IMG/VR virus record: IMGVR_UViG_3300046660_000385
Coordinates: 1 to 64,000 of that record
Origin: a virus
Direction: 5' to 3' (one strand)
DNA length: 64,000 nt
The stretch's first letter is position 1. Each line of letters starts with the position of its first letter. Below are positions 4,631-48,035 of this stretch, in pieces. The position numbers and the translations under genes are program-made. The notes beneath the pieces are model-generated. The model ran no database searches. It was not told the origin of the DNA and was given only the letters and a program-made list of their open reading frames with translations.

Positions 4631-5548
4631 TTACCGTGTTTTCAAGAGCTTAGGCAGGTTCTCCTCGACCAGCCGGTGCAGTGCGTCGTAGTCGATATTG
4701 CCGGACACGCGCGCGCCCTCGGCCGTGTACACCAGGCGCACGCCGCCGCCCAGTTCGATGTCCTTTTTCGGCTTGTCGGCGCGCGGGTTGGCCCGCTCCT
4801 CGATCCACGCCGGTACGCTGGCCTGGGTCAGCTTGCCCTTGGCGAGCAGGTCGAGCGCGTCGAGTACCAGCAGCTCGTGCTGCGGACAGTAGGCCTTGAA
4901 CTTCTTGGCCAGGTTGTAGCCGACGATCGTGGGGTGGTCGTCGAGCAGCTGCTGGGCGGCCAGCGGCAGCACGGCGAAGCCGTCCAGCGCCGGGATCACG
5001 GTGCGGTCAACGTTCAGCAGGCGCCCCAGCTCGGTCGCGCTGGTGGCGGCGCCGATCCGGCGCAGCATCTGCGCGTGCTTGTACAGTTCCCAGTCGCCCA
5101 GGTTCCTGCGGTGGGTATTCTCGGTCGTCAGTGCCCTGGCCGCCTCGGCGTCGGACATGGGGCGCACGAACGCGGGGATCTCGTGCCGGCCCAGGTGGGC
5201 GTACGCCTGCAGCCGATGGTGGCCGGCGATCAGCTCGTAGCGGGGTTGGGGGGGTGTGATACTATCACACCCCTCCTGCGGCAAGGCCGCCAGCGGGCGC
5301 ACGATGATCGGGTCGTGCAGGCCCTCGATACGGATGCTCTCGGCCAGCGCTTCTATATAGGCCTGGTCGGCCCGGCCGCGGCTCTGGTAGGCCGACACCG
5401 CGATGTAGTGCAGCTTGAGCATCTGCGGCGGCGCAGTGTCCTGGCCCATCCTGCCGATGATGGTGGTGGCGACGTCGGCCTGCATCTGTTCGCGTGGCCG
5501 GCGCTCGGCCGCGCCCGCCATCAGTTCGCGTTCCTGCTTACTCGGCAT
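4631..5548 (-). CDS. parB: ParB/RepB/Spo0J partition protein
   Basis: LAESIRIEGLHDPIIVR...YELIAGHHRL...EN..RRNL; directly downstream of parA. Confidence 0.92.
   Translation of the reverse strand: MPSKQERELMAGAAERRPREQMQADVATTIIGRMGQDTAPPQMLKLHYIAVSAYQSRGRADQAYIEALAESIRIEGLHDPIIVRPLAALPQEGCDSITPPQPRYELIAGHHRLQAYAHLGRHEIPAFVRPMSDAEAARALTTENTHRRNLGDWELYKHAQMLRRIGAATSATELGRLLNVDRTVIPALDGFAVLPLAAQQLLDDHPTIVGYNLAKKFKAYCPQHELLVLDALDLLAKGKLTQASVPAWIEERANPRADKPKKDIELGGGVRLVYTAEGARVSGNIDYDALHRLVEENLPKLLKTR
5251..5273. repeat. 23-bp palindrome copy 1, candidate parS, inside parB
   Basis: GGGGTGTGATA-C-TATCACACCCC, perfect inverted repeat, identical to 7254-7276. Confidence 0.75.
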
Positions 5549-6350
5549 GGGCCAGCTCCTCCTCCACGTTCTTGCGGGCCAGCCCCAGCTTGTCCATCAG
5601 CTCGCGCATCAGGCGCACCGTCACGCGCGAGACCGTATGGTCCTTGTCGTACTGCATGATGGTCTTGCCGACCAGCTGGGCCTTCTTGACGTCGGTCGAT
5701 TCCGGCAGCGCGGTCTCGAACACGCTCTCGAACGAGGCCTTCACCTCGTTGGCGACGATCCGGCATACCTGCTTGCGGCCGTCGTGCTTGGTGAGCACGG
5801 CGCCGCCAAAGGTCAGTTTCGGGTTGGCGGTCTTGGCCTGGTGGATGAAGTCGAGCACGTCGTCAGCGCCGATCAGCGACAGCTTGGAGCCGGATTCGAC
5901 CGGCACGATCACCATGTCGGCGGCCGCCAGCGCGTTCGCGCTGAGCAGGCCCAGCGACGGCGGGCAGTCGATCAGGATCACGTCGTAGCCGTCGGCAATC
6001 CGCGACAGCTTCTCGGCCAGCAGGCGCGTGGCGATGAACGGGTTGGCGGCCAGCACCTCGCGTTCCAGGTTCGCCAGTTTCAGGGTCGCGCCGAGCAGGT
6101 GCACGCCGGGGATGCGGGTCTCGGTGATGATCGCCTCGGAGATCGTCGACTGGCCGGCCAGCACGCGCTCGATCGGCCGGGACGGCAGCTCCGCGAAGCT
6201 GTAGATCAGCGCGGTCGCGTGGGCCTGGGGATCGAAGTCGACGACCAGCACACTCAGGCCTTCGCGCGCCAGGGCGTCCGCGCCCGAGGTGCAGAGGAAG
6301 GTTTTGTTGACGCCGCCCTTGTGGTTGACGACCGCTACAATTTTCGCCAT
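5538..6350 (-). CDS. parA: ParA/Soj family ATPase
   Basis: NHKGGVNKT deviant Walker A, VDFDPQAHAT, YDVILIDCPPSLG. Confidence 0.95.
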   Translation of the reverse strand: MAKIVAVVNHKGGVNKTFLCTSGADALAREGLSVLVVDFDPQAHATALIYSFAELPSRPIERVLAGQSTISEAIITETRIPGVHLLGATLKLANLEREVLAANPFIATRLLAEKLSRIADGYDVILIDCPPSLGLLSANALAAADMVIVPVESGSKLSLIGADDVLDFIHQAKTANPKLTFGGAVLTKHDGRKQVCRIVANEVKASFESVFETALPESTDVKKAQLVGKTIMQYDKDHTVSRVTVRLMRELMDKLGLARKNVEEELAHAE

Positions 6351-14005: not shown

Positions 14006-14578
14006 ATGAAAAAACTTTCCGCACGGATGCGCGCCGCCCGCCGGCACCGCGAACAGGAGTTTCTGGGTGTCGCCGCCAACAAGGTCGGCTCGTACAGCGC
14101 GCTGGCCCGCGAACTGGGCGTGTCGGCCCAGGCCGTGCATCAGTGGTCCCGGAAAGGCACCCCGCTCCGCCGCTGCAGCGGGATCGAGCGCGCCAGCGAG
14201 GGCGTGGTCCAGTGCGAACAGCTCAACGAGGACTACAACCTGATCGAGGTCCGGCCCTACCGCCACACCCCGCCGACCAACGCGATCTATATCTCCGGTC
14301 CGATGACCGGCAAGGTCGACCTGAACCGTCCCGCCTTCAACGCCGAAGCGGCGCGCCTGCGCAACCTGGGCTACCGCGTCGTCAACCCGGCCGAGTTCGA
14401 GCTGGCGCCGGACACCACCTGGGCCGGCTACATGCGCCACGACATCATCGCCATGCTGACCCACTGCGACACGCTGGTTGTCCTGCCGGGCTGGAACCGC
14501 TCGAAGGGCGCCCAGCTCGAGGTGTACCTGGCGCGCCAGCTGGAACTGCGCGTCGTGAAAGCCGGTGCGCTCAAATGA
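14006..14578 (+). CDS. Cro/YdaS-like HTH fused to DUF4406 (nucleoside deoxyribosyltransferase-like) domain
   Basis: GSYSALARELGVSAQAVHQW...IERASEGVV..EQL then IYISGPMTG..DLNRPAF...VVNPAE...YMR.DI...CD....LPGW..SKGA.LE. Confidence 0.82.
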   Translation: MKKLSARMRAARRHREQEFLGVAANKVGSYSALARELGVSAQAVHQWSRKGTPLRRCSGIERASEGVVQCEQLNEDYNLIEVRPYRHTPPTNAIYISGPMTGKVDLNRPAFNAEAARLRNLGYRVVNPAEFELAPDTTWAGYMRHDIIAMLTHCDTLVVLPGWNRSKGAQLEVYLARQLELRVVKAGALK

Positions 14579-35013: not shown

Positions 35014-35559
35014 ATGACCACTCAATATGATTTCGCCGCTGCGGAGGTCGACTACGCGGCAGGCGGGTACAGCATCAACGCCCTGGCCACGAAGCACAGC
35101 ATCCCCGAACCCACCTTGCGGCGCTACGCCAAGAAGCAGGGCTGGATCAAAGGGACCAGTGATGTTAAGCGGGAACTTGTACGGGAAGCAATGGCTGGCG
35201 TACCTGTTGACGAACAGGTGACGAACGGAATGACGAGCGACGAACAGATTCGTCAAGTGCAGATCGACGAGGCCACCCAGGACGTGCGGGACATGACGAC
35301 CGGCTTGGCCGTGGCACGCAAGGCGATGGACAAGCTGCTGACGATGGTGGACAGCGTCGATCAGCCCAAAGATGTCAAAACGATTGTCGAGGCGAACAAA
35401 CTGGCCGTCGAGACGATCCGCAAGATCCGCGAGCTGGACGACCCGGAGGACAGCAGCACCAACGTGACCGTGGCGGTGTCGGATGGATTCGACGAGCTGC
35501 GTGCCGCGTTCAAGAAGCGCCTGCAACAGGCCGTAGGGACCAATGCTGACCCTGCCTGA
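35014..35559 (+). CDS. terS: Terminase small subunit
   Basis: N-terminal HTH (DYAAG..SINALA.KH.I...[10 protein letters not shown]); overlaps terL start. Confidence 0.75.
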
Positions 35560-37159
35560 CGAGATCCGCGCCGCCCTGCACGCGGCCCCGTTCGACACGG
35601 TGGCCGACCTGTGGGAGGTGATCGAGAGCCAGTACGGCATGGACGGCAAGGCGTGGCTGGGCAGGAACGACCGCTTCTATTTGCTGACGCGCCTGCTGCA
35701 CCGGCTCGACGCCATCCACCCCTGGATCTACGCACGCTGCCGCGAGGTCGAAACTGAACCGGACGGTGTTCTTGATCTTTGGGCAAGGGAACATTATAAG
35801 AGTACGGTTATTACATTTGCGGGCATTATTCAGGAAATTATTGTCAATCCAGAGATCACGATAGGCATTTTTTCCCACACTAAGCCGGTGGCGAGAAAGT
35901 TCCTATTGCAGATCAAGCAGGAGCTTGAGGCCAACCGGGAATTGCAGGCCACCTACCCCGACGTGCTGTACCCCGACCCACGCGGCCAGTCGCCAAAGTG
36001 GAGCGAAGAAAAAGGCATCGTGGTGAAAAGGCGCTCGAATCCCAAGGAAGCGACTGTCGAAAGCCACGGTCTTGTCGATGGGCAACCCACCGGCGCACAC
36101 TTTTTACTGCGCGTGTATGACGACGTGGTGACGAGGGAGTCCGTCAGCACCCCGGATCAGGTCAACAAAACGACCACGGCCTGGGAACTCTCGGACAACC
36201 TGGGCGCCAGGGGCGAGGACGGCAAGATCCGCGCGTGGCACGTCGGGACGCGCTACTCGTTCATGGACACCTATCAGGAGATCATCGACAGGCGCATCCT
36301 CAAGGTGCGGCTGTACCCGGCCACCGCTGACGGCACGCCCGACGGCAAGCCGGTGTTCCTGACCCAGGAAGCGTGGGAAGCGAAGAAACTGGCCCAGGGG
36401 CCGGCGACGATCGCGTGCCAACAACTGATGAATCCTGCCGCAGGGAATGAAAGCATGTTCAAGAAGGAGTGGCTATCCTTCCTCGACATTCGACCCGCCA
36501 CCTTGAACGTGTACATCATGGTGGACCCGGCCAATTCCAAAAAGAAGGGGTCGGACAACACCGCAATGGCCGTGGTCGGCGTCGATAGCGGCAACAACCG
36601 CTATTTATTGGACGGCTACAGACACAAAATGGGCCTGCGCGAGCGTTGGGAAGCGTTGAAGGGCCTGCGCCGGTACTGGATGTCCCAGCCTGGGGTCCAG
36701 GCCGTGCACGTCGGCTATGAGCGGTACGGTCTCCAGTCGGATCTCGAATACTTCGAGGAGCAGATGACCCGTGAGAAGGAGGCGTTCGAGATCGTCGAGC
36801 TGGCCTGGACTTCCGACGGAGCGCAATCGAAAGACGACCGCGTCCAGAGGTTGCAGCCCGACTTCATCAGCCGCCGTTTCTATTTGGCCGCCGTGGTCCA
36901 GGGCGAGACCGCGAACCAAAAGAGAATCCGCGAGCAGGGACAACCCTTCCGAATCTTCAAGCCTGTGACCAGGCGCGACCACGAAGGGAACATGTACAGT
37001 CTCAACAAAGGCTTTTTGGAAGAATATCTGACCTATCCTTTCAGTGCGAAGAAGGATCTGATCGACGCGACCTCCCGCCTGTACGACATGTCGCCGGTCC
37101 CGCCGATCATCATCGACGAGCGTGCGCTCGAACCCGAAACCTTCGCGGACGGGGTGTGA
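35543..37159 (+). CDS. terL: Terminase large subunit
   Basis: AREHYKST Walker A variant, G.HF...YDDVV, VGTRY, nuclease VDPA...SD.TA, D..DA. Confidence 0.9.
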   Translation: MLTLPDEIRAALHAAPFDTVADLWEVIESQYGMDGKAWLGRNDRFYLLTRLLHRLDAIHPWIYARCREVETEPDGVLDLWAREHYKSTVITFAGIIQEIIVNPEITIGIFSHTKPVARKFLLQIKQELEANRELQATYPDVLYPDPRGQSPKWSEEKGIVVKRRSNPKEATVESHGLVDGQPTGAHFLLRVYDDVVTRESVSTPDQVNKTTTAWELSDNLGARGEDGKIRAWHVGTRYSFMDTYQEIIDRRILKVRLYPATADGTPDGKPVFLTQEAWEAKKLAQGPATIACQQLMNPAAGNESMFKKEWLSFLDIRPATLNVYIMVDPANSKKKGSDNTAMAVVGVDSGNNRYLLDGYRHKMGLRERWEALKGLRRYWMSQPGVQAVHVGYERYGLQSDLEYFEEQMTREKEAFEIVELAWTSDGAQSKDDRVQRLQPDFISRRFYLAAVVQGETANQKRIREQGQPFRIFKPVTRRDHEGNMYSLNKGFLEEYLTYPFSAKKDLIDATSRLYDMSPVPPIIIDERALEPETFADGV

Positions 37160-37352: not shown

Positions 37353-37453
37353 TGTGTTACGGGGCGCAGGCCTGACCTCGACCAGTAACAATAGGATGGT
37401 GTCCCGCCTAGCTTGACACTATGCGTCTGTGGTCTACACTCTAGTGGTACACA
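37353..37453. promoter_or_regulatory. Candidate res site and resolvase promoter
   Basis: Three TGT...ACA-bounded subsites (TGTTAC..GTAACA; TGTCC..TGACA; TGTGG..TACACA) and TTGACA-16-TACACT. Confidence 0.55.
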
Positions 37454-37473
37454 ACCACCACGGAGGGCAGGCC

Positions 37474-38046
37474 ATGAGCAAGGGACCAGGGAAGCGGATC
37501 GGGTATGTGCGGGTATCGACGACCGACCAGAACACGGAGAGGCAGCTTGACGGGATCGAGCTGGACAAGACGTTCGAGGACAAGTGCAGCGGCAGCACGA
37601 CCAACAGGCCGGCATTGAAGGCGATGCTCGACTACGTGAGGGACGGCGACACGCTCTACGTCCACTCGCTGGACCGCCTGGGCCGCAACCTGCACGACCT
37701 GCTGCTGATGGTGGCCCGCCTGACCGATGACGGCGTGACGGTCATCTTCGTCAAGCAGAACCTGACCTTCTCGGGCGAACCCAACCCGATGAACGACCTG
37801 ATGCTCGGCCTGCTCGGTGCCGTGGCGCAGTTCGAGAGGGCCATGATCCGCGAGCGCCAGGCCGAAGGGATCGCCATCGCCAAGAGGAAGGGCGTGTACA
37901 AGGGCAGGAAGCCCACGCTCGACGACGCCACGGTGCAGGAGCTGCGCCTGCGCGCTGCCGACCCCGCGATCTCCAAGGCCGCGCTGGCCAGGGAGTACGG
38001 CATCAGCCGCATGACCATGTACCGCTACCTCGACGGCCACGCCTAA
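37474..38046 (+). CDS. Small serine recombinase (resolvase/invertase family)
   Basis: GYVRVSTTDQ..ERQ, SG...RP.L, SLDRLGR, AQFER..IRERQ.EGI..AK..G.Y.GRK, C-terminal HTH. Confidence 0.96.
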   Translation: MSKGPGKRIGYVRVSTTDQNTERQLDGIELDKTFEDKCSGSTTNRPALKAMLDYVRDGDTLYVHSLDRLGRNLHDLLLMVARLTDDGVTVIFVKQNLTFSGEPNPMNDLMLGLLGAVAQFERAMIRERQAEGIAIAKRKGVYKGRKPTLDDATVQELRLRAADPAISKAALAREYGISRMTMYRYLDGHA

Positions 38047-38085: not shown

Positions 38086-38120
38086 AACGCCTCCGGTGCC
38101 GAAAGGTGCCGGGGGCGTTT
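38086..38120. terminator. Hairpin between convergent genes
   Basis: AACGCCTCCGG...GAAA...CCGGGGGCGTTT. Confidence 0.55.
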
Positions 38121-38273
38121 CTACGTCCGCTCGTCCCGGCCCGGCTTGACCATTGCCACGTAGGGCCTGAGCGCAGCGGTGTACTCGCCCGGCCTGCGGT
38201 AGTACCGGCTGCGCCAGTGGGCACCGTACAGCTTGCCGGCGTAGTAGCCCTCACGCTGGCGGCGGCTAGTCAT
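38121..38273 (-). CDS. 50-aa basic protein (not in ORF track)
   Basis: MTSRRQREGYYAGKLYGAHWRSR..., shares N-terminus with upstream gene. Confidence 0.55.
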   Translation of the reverse strand: MTSRRQREGYYAGKLYGAHWRSRYYRRPGEYTAALRPYVAMVKPGRDERT

Positions 38274-38526
38274 CGGCATCGGCCCGGTCGATCACCACCT
38301 CGGCGGTCATGCCCTTGCTGCGGTAGCGGATGCGCAGCGGCAGGATCGGCGGCACCGGACTGCGGGCGTTCATGGTCATCCAGGCGATCCCGTTGTCGGG
38401 GAACGGCAGGAAGGGCGGGAACAGCTCCTCACCGCCGACCATCAGGGCAGGCACCAGAGCACGACGACGGACATGCTTGCCGGCCCAGGTGCCGGCGTAC
38501 CGGCCCTCTCTCTGGTTGCGGCTCAT
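38266..38526 (-). CDS. Small basic protein
   Basis: MSRNQREGRYAGTWAGKHVRRR; ATGA coupling. Confidence 0.6.
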   Translation of the reverse strand: MSRNQREGRYAGTWAGKHVRRRALVPALMVGGEELFPPFLPFPDNGIAWMTMNARSPVPPILPLRIRYRSKGMTAEVVIDRADADD

Positions 38527-38780
38527 GGCCATAGCCTCTTGAAGTGGTCGGTGCGGCGGTAGGTCCGTGCCGTCAGGTCGTACGCTGCATTGCCCGGCGC
38601 GTAGTCGAGGTACAGGTTCAGGTCGAGGCTGGCCTGGGGCATCGACAGGCCGAAGAAGTCGACCAGCACGCCACGGTTGATGTTGCCGTAGGTCGCCAGC
38701 ATGCACTCGACGAACTGTAGCCGCATCAGCAGGGCAGGGCGCAGGGTCGACAGCTCCGCCAACGGTGTGGTCCTGCTCAT
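38523..38780 (-). CDS. Stand-alone CapW/BrxR-type winged HTH domain
   Basis: RLQFVE..L..YG.INR..L.DFFG.S.PQAS.DL..Y...AP.N..YD...R.Y.....F. Confidence 0.75.
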   Translation of the reverse strand: MSRTTPLAELSTLRPALLMRLQFVECMLATYGNINRGVLVDFFGLSMPQASLDLNLYLDYAPGNAAYDLTARTYRRTDHFKRLWP

Positions 38781-38965
38781 TCCGGTGTCCTCGGTTCGGC
38801 GTGGAACGTGTGCTTGCAGTGCGGGCAGGTGTAGACCACCAGGTTAAAGAACGGCATGACCTCGGCAGCATCGGGATGGCTCCACTGGTAGTGGTCCCGT
38901 TCCTCGTGCTGCATCGGCTGCTCCGGCGTGCAGAAGCGGCGTGGCAGGGCGCTGTAGTACATCAT
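38777..38965 (-). CDS. Small Zn-ribbon protein
   Basis: YTCPHCKHTF; coupled. Confidence 0.6.
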   Translation of the reverse strand: MMYYSALPRRFCTPEQPMQHEERDHYQWSHPDAAEVMPFFNLVVYTCPHCKHTFHAEPRTPE

Positions 38966-39219
38966 CCCTCGTCCTCGTCGCCGCCCCGCTTGACCACCCA
39001 CTCGGCCCGGCCAACGTACTCCATGTCGTCCCAGGTGGCGCGGTAGTAGGCCTGTCCTCCCAGCTGGCCGTTCTCGCCGGTCATCTGGACGTAGCCCTGC
39101 GCTCCCCACGGCTTCGGCTCGGTGACGGTCATCATGCAGCAGGCGAACATCGGGTTGCCGACGTCGGGCGAGAGTTGGACCACATCGCCCTCCTTGAGCT
39201 GGCGTTCGTCCGGCGTCAT
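38962..39219 (-). CDS. Small SH3-like hypothetical protein
   Basis: LKEGDVVQL...VTEPK.WG.QGYV. Confidence 0.7.
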   Translation of the reverse strand: MTPDERQLKEGDVVQLSPDVGNPMFACCMMTVTEPKPWGAQGYVQMTGENGQLGGQAYYRATWDDMEYVGRAEWVVKRGGDEDEG

Positions 39220-39455
39220 GCGGTGCGCTCCTTGAGCGCGACGATCACATCTGACAGCACGCTGTGCAGCCACTTGATCTCCAGCCGCGGGTCGATGTCG
39301 AACAGGTCGACCAACCCCGACTTCGCACCGCGCTCGTCCAGCGTGGCTTGCAGGTGGCGGATGATGTCGGCGTCGGTCCTCAGATACATCTTGGCCGTCC
39401 ATTCCCGCAGTGCGGCGATCCTCTCGGGGGTGATCTCGATGTCAAGGTCGGTCAT
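39216..39455 (-). CDS. Hypothetical protein
   Basis: Coupled 79-aa ORF. Confidence 0.6.
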   Translation of the reverse strand: MTDLDIEITPERIAALREWTAKMYLRTDADIIRHLQATLDERGAKSGLVDLFDIDPRLEIKWLHSVLSDVIVALKERTA

Positions 39456-39458
39456 GGT

Positions 39459-39596
39459 CTAACTCCAGATAGTGTAGAGGCCGCCGATCATGCCGATGAT
39501 GCACAGCACACCATAGACAGGTTCGGCGAAGGCAATCGCGCAGCAGGCTGCGCAGCAGGCCACGCTGGCGATGGCGCGGGCGGTCGGGTTGCTCAT
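39459..39596 (-). CDS. 45-aa two-TM membrane peptide
   Basis: MSNPTARAIASVACCAACCAIAFAEPVYGVLCIIGMIGGLYTIWS; fills gap, ATGA coupling. Confidence 0.5.
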   Translation of the reverse strand: MSNPTARAIASVACCAACCAIAFAEPVYGVLCIIGMIGGLYTIWS

Positions 39597-39880
39597 GGCC
39601 GGATACCTCGCACTGGCTGGTCGTCGAACGGGATCGGCTTGCCCACCTCGGCCTCGTCGAGACGGCGGATCGGCACGAACACGTCGAAGTGCTGCTCGTC
39701 CTCGGGGTGCCTGATCGCTTCGAGGAACACGTTGGCGAACTTGGTGCGCCAGTGGATGAACACGCCGCGCTCATCGTTCCAGCGTGCGACGGTGGCATTG
39801 CGGCAGCGCCCCTCATAGTAGGCGCCGTCGACCAGATCGGCCCTGGCGATGATGGTGCGGGTAGCGTGGGGGTGAATCAT
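39593..39880 (-). CDS. Conserved phage hypothetical protein
   Basis: DL.DGAYY.G.CRNA.VARW...F...R.KF...I.HPED. Confidence 0.7.
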   Translation of the reverse strand: MIHPHATRTIIARADLVDGAYYEGRCRNATVARWNDERGVFIHWRTKFANVFLEAIRHPEDEQHFDVFVPIRRLDEAEVGKPIPFDDQPVRGIRP

Positions 39881-40341
39881 TCGCGGCACTCCGGGTCGAG
39901 CAGGTGGCGCAGCTGGCGGTAGTCGCTCAGGCTGACGCCCCGCTGGGGGTTGGTCTGGACGAAGCGCGCCGCGAGTTCGGGATGGCCGTCGCAGATCGCC
40001 ACGTCGTCGACGATGGCGAACGTCGTCACCTCGGGATGCTCGGCGAGCCAGGCCGCGATCTCGCTGCCCCGCGTGTCGTAGCTGCCGTGGTCCGGCGTCT
40101 CGTCGATCACCGGCAAGTCCAGCGCCTCGGCAACGACGCCCGGACGGTGGTAGATGCGCCAGGTCGAGGACAGGACGATCACCGTCTCGGTCACACGGCA
40201 CAACCTGCGGATCAGCCCCAGGGCAACGTGGTCGAACTTGGGCATGTCGGCCTCTGAGAAGTCGTGCGGGTAGCCGCCCAGCGCCATGCTGCTGCGGTCG
40301 CTATTGACCACGCCGTCGATGTCGAAGAACAGGACCTTCAT
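39877..40341 (-). CDS. HAD-superfamily phosphatase (Swiss-Army-knife RNA-repair-like)
   Basis: FFDIDGVVN, IVLSSTWR, RG.EI..WL, FAIVDD. Confidence 0.88.
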   Translation of the reverse strand: MKVLFFDIDGVVNSDRSSMALGGYPHDFSEADMPKFDHVALGLIRRLCRVTETVIVLSSTWRIYHRPGVVAEALDLPVIDETPDHGSYDTRGSEIAAWLAEHPEVTTFAIVDDVAICDGHPELAARFVQTNPQRGVSLSDYRQLRHLLDPECRE

Positions 40342-41246
40342 CGCTGACTCCCGACCAACTGCATGCGCTCGACGAAGTCAGGTCTGGCACGGCAGTACAG
40401 CTGGCCGGTCTGCGCGTCGCGGTACACGACCAGATCGGCATGGTCACGCATGGTGCCCGCGCCCTTGGCCTGGCCGATCAGTTCGTACTCGCCGCCCTTG
40501 CCGATGCAGGTATAGACCAGAGTCGGGTAGGCGTTCAGCCGGCGCGCGATCTCCTGGGCGTGGGCGATCTCGCGCTCGTCCGAGTCGAAGTGGCCGTAGA
40601 CCTCCAGCGCCACAGTGAAGGTGGAATCGCCGGATTGGATCACGATCCGGCCCTGGCCCCAGTGGTCGACCGTCCACGGACCCTTTTCCGTGACAGTCAC
40701 GGATTCAGCGGAAGCGGTGTCGAACCACCAGTCGAACGCCGACAGCAGGTCGTGGGCAGTGAGCTGGAAGCGCACCCGGTCGGGCTGCTCGTGATACTCG
40801 ATCACCTCGCACTGGTTGCCGATGAAGGCGATCGCCTGTTCCGGCGTGCTCGGGATCGCCGGCCTCGCCGCCATGCGCTCGCGCAGCTCCATGCACTCCT
40901 TCGACTTCGACGCGGCGCGGGTCTCGGCCAGGTCGGCACGCAGCTTCTCGGCAGCGAGCTGGCGGTGCAGGGCGGTGATCTCGTCGTCGGCGCTCAGCGC
41001 GGTTCCCCAGCAGGTCCTGTCGATCTCGGCTGCGATCTCGGCGTGGGTCTTGGCAGGGTAGGCCCGCACCATGTTGACGTGAAAGGCAGCGCGCAACTGG
41101 CGCAGCTTCGTCAGCAGCGCCTCGGACACGAACATCGGCGGCACCCTCTCGTCGATCACGCCGGCCTCGACCAGCTCCTGGCGAACCATGTCCATGCAGT
41201 CGGCCATGCCCTGCAGTGTGAGTTCAGTTTCTTTATCGCTATTCAT
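40338..41246 (-). CDS. Mosaic hypothetical protein with C-terminal DUF1653-like domain
   Basis: Real start ATG 41246; KGGEYELIG.A...LVVYR...G.LY.R...DF.ER. Confidence 0.7.
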   Translation of the reverse strand: MNSDKETELTLQGMADCMDMVRQELVEAGVIDERVPPMFVSEALLTKLRQLRAAFHVNMVRAYPAKTHAEIAAEIDRTCWGTALSADDEITALHRQLAAEKLRADLAETRAASKSKECMELRERMAARPAIPSTPEQAIAFIGNQCEVIEYHEQPDRVRFQLTAHDLLSAFDWWFDTASAESVTVTEKGPWTVDHWGQGRIVIQSGDSTFTVALEVYGHFDSDEREIAHAQEIARRLNAYPTLVYTCIGKGGEYELIGQAKGAGTMRDHADLVVYRDAQTGQLYCRARPDFVERMQLVGSQR

Positions 41247-41252
41247 CACGCC

Positions 41253-41282
41253 AGTTTGTCGCGTGGTGTTACCACCTGTCAA
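41253..41282 (-). promoter_or_regulatory. Promoter of second accessory operon with inverted repeat
   Basis: TTGACA-18-CAAACT ending 6 nt before ATG; GTGGT-GTT-ACCAC in spacer. Confidence 0.55.
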
Positions 41283-41300
41283 GACTTTCGGAGACCTCCC

Positions 41301-41573
41301 ATGAAGAAGTTCGTCAAGCCCGTGGCCAAGCCAGAACAGGTGCCGTCGATGAACCCGCCGCCGATGCCGGTCAAGGCTGCGCGTCCGCCGGCGGTGCCGC
41401 CCGTCTCGCCGAAGATCCCGGCCGGTCCGTCGCCGATGGCGCGCCCGCCGGTGCCCAAGACCAGCCGCCAGGTGCCCAGCGTGCCGACCGCCCGCGGCGT
41501 GGTGCGCACCGACACCCACAACCAGGTCAACCAGGTCCCGGCCCACGCCAAGCACAAGGGCCGGGGTGTGTGA
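41301..41573 (+). CDS. Pro/Lys-rich small protein
   Basis: RBS GGAG; MKKFVKPVAKP... Confidence 0.6.
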   Translation: MKKFVKPVAKPEQVPSMNPPPMPVKAARPPAVPPVSPKIPAGPSPMARPPVPKTSRQVPSVPTARGVVRTDTHNQVNQVPAHAKHKGRGV

Positions 41574-41698
41574 TGGCCAGCCCGTTCCCCGACAGGCCGT
41601 TCGAGCCGTCCCCGGAATTCCGGGAATGGCTGGACCGCCTGGTGGGGAACGGGCCGCCACCGAAGCCCACGCCGATCCCAGAGGACCCCGATGAGTGA
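41573..41698 (+). CDS. 41-aa hypothetical protein
   Basis: TGATG coupling; overlaps next start. Confidence 0.4.
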   Translation: MASPFPDRPFEPSPEFREWLDRLVGNGPPPKPTPIPEDPDE

Positions 41699-44249
41699 CG
41701 ACCGCACGATCCCGAGCTTCTCGACCCGCCTGTGGTCGGAGGAGGTCGGCATGGCCGACCCGAGCGCGAACTTCAACGCGCCGCCGGTGCTCGGCTATAC
41801 GTTCGGCGGCCGCACCCTGACCACCGACGTCAACTCGACCCTGTACAACCAGGTGCCGCAGATCCCGGCCCTGCTGGACGTGCACTTCACCGCCCGCCAG
41901 GCCCAGCGCGTTGCCGCCCTCGCCGAGGTCAGCGAACATATCGCCATCGACGGCGTCGCCGCTACTGGCCAGCGCGGTCAGATCGCCGCCGTGTGGGTGC
42001 CGGTCGACGGCCTCGAGCCGCAGAACGTCGCCGAGGTCGCAACCGGCCAGCGCCAGCTCGCCGCCCTGCTGGGTGGGATCACCAGCGAGAACATCACGAC
42101 CGGCAGCACCGTCACCACCAGCCAGGGCCAGCGCGGCGTCGCCCAGATCGCCATCAATGGCGCCAACCCGCCGGCCGTCGGCACTGCGTCGTCCGGCCAG
42201 CGCCAGTACGCGGCCGCCGTGGTCGCGGTCAACGGCATCCAGCCGGGAAGCGATGCGCCGATCGCCATCGGGGGCGAGATCACCAACTTCAAGCTGGAAA
42301 ACACGTCGACTACGCCGCTCACCAACACGCCGTTCTCGTTCGGCCAGGTATTCGTGGCGGGCCACCTGCCGGCCGCCGGCGCCAACGTCAGCCTGGCGCT
42401 GGCCGACAACACGCCGCTGTCGTGCCAGATCGACGTGAAAGCAACCCACGGCGACGGCTCGGTGCGCCACGCCATCATCAGCGGCATCATCCCGCAGCTG
42501 GCCGCAAGCGCCACCCAGACCGTCACGATCCGCCGCGCAGCACCGGCGCCAGGCCTGCCGGCGGTGTCCCTCCCGCCGTCGCTGCCGTCGGCCACGCTCG
42601 TCATCGCGGGCGCGACCTACACCGCGACCTGCGCGGGAGTCGCCCCCGACACCTGGCTCGCCGGCCCCTGCGCCAGCGACTACGTGTTCAACGTGCCGTT
42701 CACCGGCGCCGGCGGTCCGCACGCGACCCTCATGGCCCAGTTCTCGGTGCGCCGGTTCAGCACCGGCCAGGTGCGGGTCGACGCCGTGCTCGAGCACTGC
42801 AAAGCGTATCTCTCGACCGCCGATATCACCTACGACGTGACGATCGTCGCCAACGGCGCCACCGTCTACAGCAAGACCGGCCTGGTGCACACCCCGGCGG
42901 CGCGCTGGAAGCGCACGTTCTGGTACGGCACGGCCCCGGCCCTGCACATCCGCCACAACACGCCTTACCTGATCGCCAGCCGCCAGATCCCGAACTACGA
43001 CCAGAGCATCACGATCCCCGAGTCGGTGCTGGCCGGCTACGCGACCGACCTGGCCAGCACCAGGTTCGACCCGATGGGCTTCGGCCGCTTTGCCGCCTAC
43101 ATGCCGACCACCGGCGGGCGCGCCGACATCGGCCTGATGCCGGACTCGTATGTCGCCACCGTCCTGTCGATGGACAAGCGCGCCAAGGCGATGATGCTGG
43201 CCAGCGCCGACATCGGCGGCAGCTGGCCGGTCTGCCGGCGCGACGACAGCAGCGGGCCAGGGCGCGGCCTGCCGCTGTCGGTGGTGAACTTCCCGTATTC
43301 CTCGGTGGTCGGCAACCCCGGCGACTGCATCAACCCGGCCACCGGCAAGAACGAGAAACTGCCGATCCTGAGCAGCGCCAGCCAGGGCGTGCCGGACAGC
43401 TCGCACCAGCCGGCCATCTATTACCTGCCGTACCTGCTGACCGGCGACTTCTTCTATCTGGAGGGCCTGCACTTCTACGGCACCTTCAACCACTACCAGG
43501 ACAACCCCTACTACCGCGACTTCGCCAAGGCGCATGTGCGCGCCGACCAGGTGCGCGGACAGGGCTGGAGCATGCGCACGCTGGCCGAGTGTGCGGCGAT
43601 CACCCCGGAAGGGCACCCGCTCAAGTCGCACTTCCAGACCTGGTACACCAATAACATCAGCTGGTTCGTCGCCCGCTACCCGGACGGCAACGACAACACG
43701 CTGGGCATCATCACCAACGGCTACGCGCTGGGCTACACGGTCAACGGCCAGGCCAACACCGGCATGGCGCCGTGGATGGACGACTTCTTCACCCAGGCGA
43801 TCGGCCACGGCATCGAGCTGCTGGGGAATTCGGAAGCGCGCCGCCTGCTGCTGTGGAAGGCGAAATTCCAGCTCGGCCGCCTGCTCGACCCGGCGGTGTG
43901 CATCCAGGATTGCTCCACCTACGCGCTGGGCGTGCGCACCACCTCGACCGCGCCGTTCTTCGCCACGCTGGCCGAGTGCTTCGCGTGGACCGTGCCGGCC
44001 GCCCAGCAGCAATACCCCTGCAACTCGCCGCAGCGCCTGGCCCTGACCCCCGGCCTGCTGCCGGGCGACATCGGCGGCTATCCCGGCTCCACCGAGGGCT
44101 ACGCGGCCGACTACCAGCCGGCCCTGGCCGTCGCCGTCGACAGCGGCTATCCGGGCGGCGCGACCGCCTGGGCCAAGTTCATGGCGCGCCCGACCAAGCC
44201 CGACTACGGCTACGAGCCGCAGTTCGCCATCGTGCCGCGCACCGTCTGA
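41691..44249 (+). CDS. Virion-associated protein: QxQ repeats plus polysaccharide-lyase-like (PcRGLX/YetA-like) body
   Basis: PFSFGQVF..G...Q.DVKATH.DGSVRHAI; YMPTTGGRADIG; HQP...YLPYLLTGD.FYLE; QVRGQGW..R.L. Confidence 0.68.
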   Translation: MSDDRTIPSFSTRLWSEEVGMADPSANFNAPPVLGYTFGGRTLTTDVNSTLYNQVPQIPALLDVHFTARQAQRVAALAEVSEHIAIDGVAATGQRGQIAAVWVPVDGLEPQNVAEVATGQRQLAALLGGITSENITTGSTVTTSQGQRGVAQIAINGANPPAVGTASSGQRQYAAAVVAVNGIQPGSDAPIAIGGEITNFKLENTSTTPLTNTPFSFGQVFVAGHLPAAGANVSLALADNTPLSCQIDVKATHGDGSVRHAIISGIIPQLAASATQTVTIRRAAPAPGLPAVSLPPSLPSATLVIAGATYTATCAGVAPDTWLAGPCASDYVFNVPFTGAGGPHATLMAQFSVRRFSTGQVRVDAVLEHCKAYLSTADITYDVTIVANGATVYSKTGLVHTPAARWKRTFWYGTAPALHIRHNTPYLIASRQIPNYDQSITIPESVLAGYATDLASTRFDPMGFGRFAAYMPTTGGRADIGLMPDSYVATVLSMDKRAKAMMLASADIGGSWPVCRRDDSSGPGRGLPLSVVNFPYSSVVGNPGDCINPATGKNEKLPILSSASQGVPDSSHQPAIYYLPYLLTGDFFYLEGLHFYGTFNHYQDNPYYRDFAKAHVRADQVRGQGWSMRTLAECAAITPEGHPLKSHFQTWYTNNISWFVARYPDGNDNTLGIITNGYALGYTVNGQANTGMAPWMDDFFTQAIGHGIELLGNSEARRLLLWKAKFQLGRLLDPAVCIQDCSTYALGVRTTSTAPFFATLAECFAWTVPAAQQQYPCNSPQRLALTPGLLPGDIGGYPGSTEGYAADYQPALAVAVDSGYPGGATAWAKFMARPTKPDYGYEPQFAIVPRTV

Positions 44250-44789: not shown

Positions 44790-47700
44790 ATGGACGACCA
44801 GACCAAACCCGCTGCCCCAACCGAGGCCCCGCCAGACTGGGTCGCGCTGGCCCGAGACGCATACTCTGCCTCGACCAACTGGTTCGATTCGTCCGTGCGC
44901 GCCCAGATCGAGGGAGACCTGCGCCAGTTCCAGGGCCAGCACCCCAGCGGCAGCAAGTACCTGGCCGACGCCAACAAGGGCCGCTCGAAACTGTTCCGGC
45001 CCAAGACCCGCACCACGATCAGGAAGAACGAGGCCGCCGCGGCCCAGGCCTTCTTCGCCTCCAACGACGTCGTGAAAGTCACGGCCCAGGACGAGGACGA
45101 TCCCGCGCAGATGGCCAGCGCGGCGGTGATGGGCGAGCTGCTGCAGCACCGGCTGACGAAATCCATCCCCTGGTTCCTCACCTTGGTCGGCGCCTACCAG
45201 GACGCCCAGACCGTGGGCGTGGTGGCGTCGTATCAATACTGGCAGTACAACGAGAAGAAGGGCATCGACCGCCCGCAGATCCGCCTGATCCCGATCGAGA
45301 ACCTGCGCTTCGACCCGGGCGCGGACTGGACCGACCCGGTCGGCACCTCGCCGTACGTGATCGAGCTGATCCCGATGTACGTCAAGGACGTCAAGGCGCG
45401 CATGCGCAATGTCGACCCCAAGACCGGCGAGGCGAAGTGGAAAACCCTGCCGGAAGCGACCATCATGGGCGCGACCAAGACCTACGGCGACACCATCCGC
45501 CTGCAGCGCGAGGCCCCGCGCCCCGATTCCAAGTACCAGACCCAGGCCAACAATAATTTCAACGTGGTGTGGGTCCACAAGAACATCGTCGAGGTCGACG
45601 AGGTCGACTACTGCTACTACACGCTCGGCTGCGAACACCTGCTGTCGGACCCGGTGCCGCTGGGCGAGGTCTATTTCCACGGCCGCCGCCCGTATGTCGT
45701 CGGGTCCGCCGTGATCGAGACCCACAAGCTGTACCCGTCGTCGGTGCCGCGCCTGACGAAAGACGTGCAGGCCGAGATCAACGAGGTCGCCAACCAGCGC
45801 ATCGACAACGTCAAGCTGGCGATGAACAAGCGCTATTTCGCGCGCCGCAACAAGCAGGTCGACCTGCGCAGCGTGACGAGGAACGTGCCCGGCTCGGTGA
45901 CGCTGGTGCAGGACATCGACGACGTCAAGGTCGTGGAGTTCAACGACGTCACCGGCTCCTCATATAAAGAGCAGGAAGTCCTGAACCTGGACTTCGACGA
46001 CGTCGCCGGCACCTTCAGCGGCTCCTCGGTGCAGTCGAACAGGAAGCTCAACGAGACCGTCGGCGGCATGCAGATGCTCGACGCCGGCGCCAACCAGGTG
46101 TCCGGCTACCAGCTGCGCACCTTCTGCGAGACCTGGGTCGAGCCGGTCCTGCGCCAGCTGGTGATGCTGGAACAGTATTACGAGACCGACGACGCGCTGC
46201 TGGCCCTGTGCAGCAAGAGCGCGCAGCTGTCCCAGCGCTTCGGCGTCGACCAGATCACGGACGACATGCTGATGAACGAGTTCACTTTGAATGTGAACGT
46301 CGGCATGGGCGCCGTCAACCCGACCGAGCAGGTGCAGCAGTTCATCCAGGGCATGACGGCGCTGGGCAACATGCTGGCCAACGAGGGCCTGGTGAACCTC
46401 GGCATGAACACCGAGGAAGTCGTCAAGGAACTGTTCGGCAAGCTGGGGTACAAGGACGGCGCGCGCTTCTTCAACTTCGACGGCAGCGACCCGCGCATCA
46501 AGCAGCTGCAGGACCAGGTGTCGCAGCTGCAGCAGCAGCTGGCGCAGAAGGTCGACCCGGCCCTCATCGCCGCGCAGATCCGCAAGATCGACGCCGAGGT
46601 GGCCAGCCTGAACGTGAAGGACCGCGTCAGCGCGGCCGACGCCGTCAAGAAGGGCAGCGAGGCGCAGTTCAGCGCGATGCAGACCGCCGAGGTCATCGCC
46701 GCCGTGCCGGGCGTGGCCCCGATCGCCGACGAGCTGATGAAGGCCGCCGGCTACCGCCCGCCGCAGCCGAGCGGGATCGACCCGAACTTCCCGCAGCCGG
46801 GCATGCCCGCCGCTGGCCTGGGGATCGAAGCCGTGAAAAACCGCCGCACCGGCATCGCCTTCCTGCCGGGCCAGGACCCGTCGACCACCGGCCAGCCGAT
46901 GCCGCCGATGCCACCCACCGCCGGGACCGGCGCCCGCGCCGGCATCGAGACCACCCGCCCGGATTCGGCGGGTCCGAGCCTGATCGCGCAGGCGGCCTAC
47001 GCCAACGGCGGCCTGGTCGGCGCGATCCCGGAGGGCCTGGACTACTACGGCCAGCAGCGCGCAGCGGCCAACCTGCTGCGCCGCGGCGGCCAGTTCATCA
47101 ACCCGGACACGATGGAGCGGGACAACCTGGCCAACTACACCGGCTGGCTTGACGACAAGGGCCTGGGCAAGAACGCGCTCAATTCCAGCCTGGTCGGCGA
47201 CCAGATGAAGGGCCTCATCACCGACGACCTGGAGACGAACAGCCTGACCCATAGCCTGATGAGCAACCTGTCGACCACCAACTTCGCCGACGGCGGCCTG
47301 GTCGACCCGAACAACCCGCTGCAGCCGCTGCAGCAGATCTGGAACGGCGCCGCCAACACGATCAACAACGGCGTGCAGCAGGCGGCGAGCCTGCCGGGCC
47401 GTGCGCTGGCCGGCTACGAGCGCCTGTCGAACGAGAACCCGAAGATCAAGCTGGCGCTCGACATGATGCCCTACACCGGCACCGTGACCTCGGCGCTGGA
47501 CGTGGCCAACGACCTGCGCAAGGGCGAGTACGGCGCCGCCGCGGGTGACGCGATCGGCCTGATCCCCGGCTACAAACTGGCCAAGGCGCCGATCCACAGC
47601 GCCGCCCAGCAGGCCATGAAATTCGTCGGCGACAACCGCGGCAAGCTCGACGCCGCGATCAACTCGATCCCCGAGTACGTCGAGAAGATCCAGCGCCAGC

Positions 47701-48035
47701 AGCAAACGCCCCCCGGCTACGCCGACGGCGGCCTGCTGCAGGGTCCGGGCACCGGCACCTCGGACACCATCCCGGCCCTGATCGACGGCGCGCAGCCGGC
47801 CCAGGTGTCGAGCGGCGAGTACGTGATCCCGGCGGCCGTCGTGCAGGTGCTGGGCCAGGACTACCTCGAGGAGCTGGTGATGCAGTTCCACACCCCGGCC
47901 GAGGGCACACCGGGCGCGCCGGCCGACATGGAGCCGATCGGCCTGCAGGGCGGCGACTTCGTCATCCCGGCCGACGTTGTTGACCAGCTGGGCCGCGACT
48001 TCTTCGACAAACTTGTGGAGCACTACAGCGAATGA
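44790..48035 (+). CDS. Portal protein with long C-terminal extension
   Basis: SKLFRPKTR, Q.EIN...NQRIDNVKL, ET.GGM..L, F.ETWVEP.L, Q-rich barrel; position before scaffold/capsid. Confidence 0.82.
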   Translation: MDDQTKPAAPTEAPPDWVALARDAYSASTNWFDSSVRAQIEGDLRQFQGQHPSGSKYLADANKGRSKLFRPKTRTTIRKNEAAAAQAFFASNDVVKVTAQDEDDPAQMASAAVMGELLQHRLTKSIPWFLTLVGAYQDAQTVGVVASYQYWQYNEKKGIDRPQIRLIPIENLRFDPGADWTDPVGTSPYVIELIPMYVKDVKARMRNVDPKTGEAKWKTLPEATIMGATKTYGDTIRLQREAPRPDSKYQTQANNNFNVVWVHKNIVEVDEVDYCYYTLGCEHLLSDPVPLGEVYFHGRRPYVVGSAVIETHKLYPSSVPRLTKDVQAEINEVANQRIDNVKLAMNKRYFARRNKQVDLRSVTRNVPGSVTLVQDIDDVKVVEFNDVTGSSYKEQEVLNLDFDDVAGTFSGSSVQSNRKLNETVGGMQMLDAGANQVSGYQLRTFCETWVEPVLRQLVMLEQYYETDDALLALCSKSAQLSQRFGVDQITDDMLMNEFTLNVNVGMGAVNPTEQVQQFIQGMTALGNMLANEGLVNLGMNTEEVVKELFGKLGYKDGARFFNFDGSDPRIKQLQDQVSQLQQQLAQKVDPALIAAQIRKIDAEVASLNVKDRVSAADAVKKGSEAQFSAMQTAEVIAAVPGVAPIADELMKAAGYRPPQPSGIDPNFPQPGMPAAGLGIEAVKNRRTGIAFLPGQDPSTTGQPMPPMPPTAGTGARAGIETTRPDSAGPSLIAQAAYANGGLVGAIPEGLDYYGQQRAAANLLRRGGQFINPDTMERDNLANYTGWLDDKGLGKNALNSSLVGDQMKGLITDDLETNSLTHSLMSNLSTTNFADGGLVDPNNPLQPLQQIWNGAANTINNGVQQAASLPGRALAGYERLSNENPKIKLALDMMPYTGTVTSALDVANDLRKGEYGAAAGDAIGLIPGYKLAKAPIHSAAQQAMKFVGDNRGKLDAAINSIPEYVEKIQRQQQTPPGYADGGLLQGPGTGTSDTIPALIDGAQPAQVSSGEYVIPAAVVQVLGQDYLEELVMQFHTPAEGTPGAPADMEPIGLQGGDFVIPADVVDQLGRDFFDKLVEHYSE

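Follow-up and report, generated by a model that had tools for sequence, protein, structure and literature searches.

The IMG/VR virus record IMGVR_UViG_3300046660_000385 is 117,858 bp long and rated 100% complete; its first 64 kb are the window analyzed here. We focus on one small gene on the minus strand of this window (positions 38523-38780), which encodes a protein of 85 amino acids (aa) that resembles the DNA-binding domain of the bacterial defense regulators CapW and BrxR. Its open reading frame (ORF) has a GC content at third codon positions (GC3) of 0.88, which in a GC-rich window (66.7% GC) fits a real gene, and a GAGG motif lies 8 nucleotides (nt) 5' of the ATG. Overlaps of 4 nt (ATGA) can be read at both junctions of the ORF: the TGA of an upstream cysteine-rich ORF of 62 aa overlaps its ATG, and its own TGA overlaps the second ATG of a downstream ORF of 88 aa. 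An earlier note on this DNA, made without database searches, had drawn the gene with these ends and coupled to both neighbors, and the overlaps at each end confirm it.

The 85-aa protein was compared with all PDB chains using phmmer. All five matches were to CapW or BrxR, and they covered the N-terminal winged helix-turn-helix (wHTH) domain alone. The best one was to CapW of P. aeruginosa (PA17; 7tb5_A, E-value 2e-14), where residues 19-85 of the query align without gaps to residues 26-92 of the chain. The CapW proteins of S. maltophilia (7tb6_A, 6.9e-10) and R. leguminosarum (9c5g_A, 5e-7) came next, followed by BrxR of E. fergusonii (7qfz_A, 0.014) and of Acinetobacter (7t8k_A, 0.17). Searches of Pfam, PHROGs, NCBIfam and PADLOC returned no match to the protein; the null Pfam result is due to PF26109 being missing from the Pfam set searched. 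The precomputed label in the protein database is PF26109.1 for the exact 85-aa protein (P0177) and for all 120 relatives listed. In the ESM Atlas, where PF26109 is named WHD_BrxR, 18 of the 30 clusters nearest to the protein carry this family, and the UniRef title of a Luteimonas homologue describes a "CapW winged helix-turn-helix domain-containing" protein.

The predicted fold agrees with these searches. The AlphaFold2 model, built from a 150-sequence alignment, has a predicted local distance difference test score (pLDDT) of 93.8 and a predicted template modeling score (pTM) of 0.84. It consists of three helices (residues 15-31, 36-43 and 47-60) and a two-strand wing formed by a beta-hairpin (65-76), and the predicted recognition helix reads S46-M-P-Q49-A-S51-L-D53. 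When the model was compared with the PDB using Foldseek, ranks 1-13 were all CapW/BrxR chains, with a query template modeling score (TMq) of 0.74-0.85 and a root-mean-square deviation (rmsd) of 0.6-1.2 Å. The next fold, IclR, reached a TMq of 0.55. The match to the N-terminal wHTH of CapW/BrxR that had been proposed from the sequence is thus borne out, and the structural assignment as a CapW/BrxR-type winged helix alone is solid.

The residues through which CapW contacts DNA are present as well. As reported in PMC9122588, the substitutions R32A and S42/Q45/S47-AAA in S. maltophilia CapW each abolish binding to the palindrome of the promoter of CBASS (cyclic oligonucleotide-based antiphage signaling system), and the contact arginine is described there as typical of CapW and not of BrxR. 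In the ungapped PDB alignment, these four positions map to R36, S46, Q49 and S51 of the 85-aa protein. R36 is invariant across 21 short homologues; among the 48 short proteins defined below, R36 is found in 47, S46 in 40, Q49 in 39 and S51 in 33 (with T in another 12). All four positions are conserved in both the short and the full-length classes. It is therefore very probable that the 85-aa protein has this fold and binds DNA in a sequence-specific manner.

CapW and BrxR are reported to bind palindromes of ~20-27 bp as two-fold dimers with their wHTH domains side by side. A two-copy complex prediction for the 85-aa protein scored 0.54, against 0.00 for the best of three controls. Among proteins solved as homo-pairs, 20 of 30 reach this score, against 1 of 23 among those solved as single chains (rough counts, with an own alignment used). 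The runs showed 100% contact agreement, the partner pLDDT was at least 88, and the predicted symmetric interface comprises residues 22-23, 26, 29-31, 37-38 and 41-42.

The remaining parts of a CapW/BrxR regulator were not found. The WYL model PF13280 had no match in the whole 117,858-bp record (the control matched in 7 of 14 genomes). For the WCX dimerization domain there is no sequence past residue 85, and a full-length CapW query showed no real similarity beyond the wHTH. The clean end without WYL or dimerization domain that the earlier note described is therefore real, and because WYL and WCX are both absent the protein falls outside the wHTH-WYL-WCX repressor family.

One may suspect that such a gene is the 5' remnant of a full-length capW/brxR gene in decay, without a function of its own. 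The full-length CapW query did give an alignment that runs beyond the stop, crosses two in-frame TGA codons and reaches residue 126, and a local BLASTP match of the 88-aa ORF to the start of the CapW WYL domain is collinear, though its E-value is 1.4. However, nothing CapW-like was seen in the read-through frame after the ORF. We also considered the 88-aa ORF as a frameshifted CapW linker and WYL start ("LRIRYRS" resembling "IEVQYQS") and rejected it: a PDB search with this ORF gave no CapW match, BLASTP against CapW gave E-values of 0.98-1.4, and hhalign of its family against 32 full-length CapW proteins gave a probability of 0.18%. The 85-aa gene is intact across six related viral contigs, at 55-98% identity. 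For close orthologue pairs (dS <0.7, at least 83% identity), the ratio of nonsynonymous to synonymous substitution rates (dN/dS) is 0.12-0.20, which indicates purifying selection on the gene; the more distant pairs have 0.4-0.65, where dS is probably saturated. Moreover, pattern scans of IMG/VR retrieved 26 viral-contig loci (6 + 20), and in all 26 the ORF stops at the domain boundary (0-9 aa after the domain), as do 51 of the best 149 database matches (0-8 aa past it). A reading as debris, which had already been doubted from the sequence, is contradicted by these results.

The survey of stand-alone homologues in phages that had been suggested for this gene found isolate phages in addition to the 26 viral loci. 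A tblastn search of GenBank phages hit four phages in five records: Stenotrophomonas phage Sonora, Pantoea phages LIET2 and Nafs113, and the Yersinia jumbo phage fHe-Yen9-02. In Sonora, LIET2 and fHe-Yen9-02 the homologue is annotated as "hypothetical protein" and lies in runs of small overlapping genes; the run in LIET2 is near a DNA cytosine methyltransferase. ESM Atlas clusters of PF26109 with lengths of 85-96 aa are 57-69% viral among their few labeled members. By comparison, 12 loci turned up when species-representative genomes were scanned; nine of them continue into a WYL-type body and three are stand-alone (Luteimonas, a Geobacter metagenome-assembled genome and Paraburkholderia), and two of these three coincide with IMG/VR proviruses. 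One order, scanned across 401 genomes, gave 27 genomes with a match, just one of them with the stand-alone form; a scan of genome contigs with the single 85-aa protein as query gave no match. At a Paraburkholderia locus (L043, 1-2328), a full-length CapW/BrxR-like gene is divergent from an ORF that looks E1/E2-like by eye, no search having been run, and the AT-rich spacer between them holds CACAT-ATTAA-ATGTG, a likely operator of the host regulator. The domain family PF26109 is already catalogued and stand-alone proteins are automatically labeled with it. In full-text literature searches we found no study of a stand-alone or phage-encoded form; figures and supplements, which may list homologues, were not covered.

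To place these short proteins relative to the full-length regulators, we searched 1.84 billion cluster representatives exhaustively, which gave 568 matches at E ≤ 1e-3. The best 22 of the 568 are proteins of 65-170 aa that are aligned to their last residues. We sorted the best 149 of the 568 by the sequence that follows the domain: 51 have 0-8 residues after it, 36 have at least 170 (full-length proteins of about 290-345 aa), and 62 are intermediate, mostly fragments cut by contig ends. In a maximum-likelihood tree computed from 73 domain columns, with no outgroup root, one clade of 96 rows holds all 36 full-length proteins, 56 of the 62 intermediates and four short fragments, with 89 in the Shimodaira-Hasegawa-like approximate likelihood ratio test (SH-aLRT). 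Outside this clade are the other 48 short proteins, including the 85-aa protein, which groups with P0001, and six intermediates. The label "short" changes seven times on the tree, compared with a mean of 43.4 when labels are shuffled.

The two classes also differ at individual positions. Position 30 is W in 36 of 36 full-length proteins, while W is not among the residues tallied for the 48 short ones. Position 31 is E or D in 27 of the 36 and Y or F in 38 of the 48; position 27 is R in 31 against L, M, I or V in 44; position 38 is D in 32 against A or V in 29; and position 82 is P in 28 against R in 37. The 85-aa protein carries M27, T30, Y31, V38 and R82. With no residue past the domain, no W30, Y31, a hydrophobic residue 27 and a place outside the full-length clade, it belongs to a mostly phage-borne stand-alone clade of the CapW/BrxR wHTH. 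Because the short proteins form a group of their own with class-specific residues, we consider them an old separate lineage and not recent captures of host genes. Their class-specific substitutions fall on or beside the predicted dimer surface. This suggests that in the short proteins a direct hydrophobic contact between the two wHTH domains may have replaced the contacts that full-length proteins make with the linker or the WYL body. Some relatives vary in architecture: P0015 and P0024 have cysteine-rich N-terminal extensions, recalling the separate 62-aa ORF of the window, and L029 (3001-3440) holds a tandem duplicate of the stand-alone gene.

The features around the gene are listed in the table below. 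The gene is the third from the end of the minus-strand cassette. It is not beside a defense system; its setting is the packaging and morphogenesis region of a phage. PADLOC, run on 17 proteins encoded in and around the cassette, found no defense family at E ≤ 0.001, and the one weaker match was to LmuB (E 0.055) on the 62-aa ORF. This ORF is found in four of the six related viral loci, with variable adjacency. A comparison of the neighbors in the wider family found no conserved partner gene beyond the six close relatives, and an apparent cluster of neighbors at 17 loci was rejected as a product of overlapping alternative frames.

Features of the window around and beyond the 85-aa gene, with positions in the window
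Feature	Position	Strand	Remarks
Stand-alone CapW/BrxR-type wHTH gene, 85 aa (PF26109, WHD_BrxR)	38523-38780	-	Based on ATG start, homology and fold model
62-aa cysteine-rich (CxxC) ORF	38777-38965	-	Upstream; translationally coupled by ATGA
88-aa ORF	38266-38532	-	Downstream; ATGA-coupled; small family; without homology to CapW linker or WYL domain
52-aa ORF	38121-38279	-	Final cassette gene; paralogous to the N-terminal region of the 88-aa ORF
Accessory cassette of small overlapping genes	38121-41246	-	Inside the plus-strand packaging/morphogenesis block
Terminase subunits	35014-37159	+	
Serine recombinase (Resolvase + HTH_7)	37429-38046	+	Between terminase and cassette
GC-rich hairpin	38086-38119		11-nt arms, 91% complementary; 12-nt loop; between convergent cassette and serine recombinase
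Imperfect palindrome, TTGTCGCGTGGT-GTT-ACCACCTGTCAA	41256-41282		27 bp; 9 of 12 arm positions paired; candidate operator
HAD_SAK_2 RNA-repair-type phosphatase, 154 aa	39877-40341	-	PF18143, 'Swiss Army Knife' HAD, 1e-25
1224-aa ORF	40338-44012	-	Mostly a high-GC antisense artefact over an 852-aa plus-strand gene
302-aa gene	40338-41246	-	Appears to be the actual minus-strand gene; phrog_12584, weak DUF1653 match
Portal and head genes	from 44790	+	
1081-aa gene	44790-48035	+	Portal and head-tail adaptor PHROG matches; tape-measure-like C-terminal stretch; unusually large portal-region fusion
ParB-like and ParA-like partition genes	4631-6350	-	
190-aa gene	14006-14578	+	Cro/YdaS-type HTH (PF15943, PF14549) fused to DUF4406, nucleoside 2-deoxyribosyltransferase-like

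The 88-aa and 52-aa ORFs that end the cassette (38121-38532) have a common N-terminal motif, S-R-x-x-R-E-G-x-Y-x-G-x-x-x-G-x-H-x-R, whose first part (S-R-x-x-R-E-G-x-Y-x-G) is the family motif of the 88-aa ORF. Related phages carry two to three tandem paralogues of these ORFs (L007, 4222-5143; L003, 877-1823), some of them N-terminally extended, and the paralogues have no family, PDB or PADLOC match. The hairpin beyond the 52-aa ORF is a likely transcription stop; a terminator scan made no call there because the hairpin has no T run. The serine recombinase on its other side is present in only three of the six related loci (L002, L003 and L006) and looks like a variable insertion. The HAD_SAK_2 protein is kept in three of the six and may have a role in RNA repair or counter-defense. 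The terminase large subunit (TerL) had no match in a phage collection (1e-20) or a plasmid collection (1e-10), and together with the partition genes this unmatched terminase points to an undescribed lineage that may live as a plasmid-prophage. A look for expression data listed eight runs, which were rhizosphere and soil metagenomes, none of them holding RNA.

At its 5' side the cassette is bounded by a divergent spacer of 54 bp, which is highly conserved in two relatives. The inverted repeat at 41263-41275 (GTGGT GTT ACCAC) forms the core of the imperfect palindrome in this spacer, and by a rough estimate ~0.1 such palindromes would be expected there by chance.

CapW (7TB6, 7TB5 and 9C5G) resembles the 85-aa protein closely in its wHTH, which is 41-47% identical over ~70 residues and has an rmsd of 0.6-0.8 Å to the model; by analogy, a two-fold dimer on a palindrome may be expected for the 85-aa protein. 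Unlike CapW, the protein has no linker helices, WYL or WCX and hence no single-stranded DNA (ssDNA) sensing, no allosteric release and no domain-swapped scaffold. It also lacks the W30 that is invariant in full-length proteins, is changed at residues 27, 31 and 38, is encoded by a phage, and does not adjoin a defense operon. The same wHTH fold is found in BrxR (7QFZ; 7T8K/7T8L; TMq 0.80-0.85), after which the Pfam model is named. As described in PMC9122601, BrxR recognizes a 27-bp site in which 11-bp inverted repeats are set 5 bp apart, and the candidate palindrome upstream of the cassette has this span. The similarity to BrxR is weaker, however (E 0.014 and 0.17), and the 85-aa protein again lacks the WYL and WCX domains; Acinetobacter BrxR is reported to read DNA by an S-R-Q-Q motif, whereas the 85-aa protein has the CapW-type S-M-P-Q-A-S. 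The small size, the lack of a sensor, the predicted dimer and the setting among small phage genes also recall the Cro-type phage HTH regulators. These are small dimeric DNA binders without a sensor domain that are encoded among small phage genes. Some members of our family, such as P0014 and P0264 (145 aa), have an XRE/Cro-type HTH fused to the wHTH, and these fusions fit a role in phage regulatory circuits. The difference is that the 85-aa protein is a WHD_BrxR winged helix and that no operator, promoter or switch is assigned to it. In sum, the protein would act as the DNA-binding half of CapW/BrxR does.

From these comparisons we infer how the protein would act. Helices 1 and 2 (residues 22-31 and 37-42) would hold two copies together, and each recognition helix (S46, Q49 and S51, with R36) would enter the major groove at one half of a palindrome of ~20-27 bp. 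Release triggered by ssDNA is the demonstrated mechanism of CapW as reported in PMC11662680, and because the 85-aa protein has no WYL-WCX sensor it would not be released in this way. A ligand, ssDNA or other, would be unable to free it, and its occupancy would be set by the amount of protein alone. The protein would then be a constitutive repressor or regulator of the phage's own DNA, with a promoter of the accessory cassette around the gene or a phage timing switch as the likeliest targets and the palindrome at 41256-41282 as the sole candidate site so far. The reading as a ligand-blind DNA-binding regulator is well founded. To the full statement, a CapW/BrxR winged helix acting as a constitutive regulator on phage-own promoters, we give a probability of roughly 45%, and as targets we favor phage-own promoters over host defense operators.

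Several observations weigh against this assignment or the steps that lead to it. The left arm of the palindrome changes in L002 and L004 without compensation. Its half-site and core are unique in the 117,858 bp, with up to 2-4 mismatches allowed, and a promoter scan of the 54-bp spacer found no sigma-70-like site. The dimer prediction may reflect memory of the solved CapW/BrxR dimers. The tree is computed from 73 columns, and its key branch, with an SH-aLRT of 89, falls below the 95 mark. Finally, kinship with defense regulators, the early/accessory setting and the RNA-repair-type HAD gene fit a counter-defense role equally well. The earlier note had offered two functions for the protein. One was autoregulation through the repeat at 41263-41275: the repeat exists but is weak, and autoregulation stays no more than a candidate given the unique motif and the uncompensated left arm. 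The other was an uninducible repressor or interferer of host defense expression; here the uninducible, ligand-blind part stands, and the separate clade and class-specific residues lean against a tailored mimic.

The counter-defense alternative holds that the protein binds host operators of the CapW/BrxR type, such as those of CBASS, BREX (bacteriophage exclusion) or restriction-modification systems, stays bound when ssDNA frees the host repressor and thereby blocks the induction of defense. The protein is of the same wHTH subtype and has all four validated DNA-contact residues including the CapW-typical arginine, and the recognition helix pattern S-x-P-Q-A-S-x-D is common to CapW. The family is largely phage-borne and found in early/accessory gene runs, in LIET2 beside a DNA methyltransferase. 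CapW derepression is reported to raise defense expression upon infection, and a preprint reports that BREX, once derepressed, outnumbers a phage inhibitor, so that a phage would gain by blocking derepression. However, the short proteins form a separate old group; repeated capture would have scattered them among the host regulators. A full-length relative is present in only one of the three genomes with a stand-alone prophage copy, and the recognition helices in that genome differ (SMPQATND in the prophage and SEPAATKD in the host). The Sonora protein is no closer to CapW of its host species, S. maltophilia (3.7e-13), than to that of P. aeruginosa (4.9e-15), and according to a 2026 preprint there is no crosstalk between parallel WYL repressors. 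We therefore regard this alternative as unlikely. Its broadest form, in which a widespread phage family of sensor-less CapW/BrxR heads with a rebuilt dimer interface occupies the operators of host WYL repressors and silences the ssDNA alarm for CBASS, BREX and other defense operons, is somewhat more doubtful still.

The free wHTH could also dock on a host CapW/BrxR protomer, through wHTH-wHTH or wHTH-WYL contacts, and alter its response without binding DNA itself. The WYL domain of CapW is reported to contact the wHTH of the other protomer, with the wHTH domains side by side, and the 85-aa protein is predicted to associate with itself via helices 1 and 2. However, short and full-length proteins carry different, class-specific residues at the interface, which points to self-pairing and not to mixed pairing. 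The short family also keeps its DNA-contact residues, which a pure protein binder would not need, and derepressed defense would be of no obvious help to a phage. Interference of this kind is improbable. Slightly less probable is an accessory role in another DNA transaction, such as directionality or site selection of the serine recombinase or maintenance of a plasmid-prophage. Small winged-helix proteins often act as recombination directionality factors, the convergent resolvase/invertase gene is ~480 bp away and the record holds ParA/ParB genes, but the recombinase is present in three of the six related loci and the wHTH gene in all six, and no neighbor is conserved in the wider family. Last comes gene decay, to which the intact, selected ORFs described above leave almost no weight.

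Among the switches by which bacteria raise immune gene expression on infection or DNA damage, CapW and BrxR are the best understood. If stand-alone phage versions of their DNA-binding domain did lock defense promoters shut, they would represent an unrecognized class of counter-defense that targets regulators instead of effectors, at the level of transcription. Alternatively, the clade could be the phage stock from which defense regulators drew their DNA-binding domain. Both possibilities are directly testable with cultured phages such as Sonora and LIET2.

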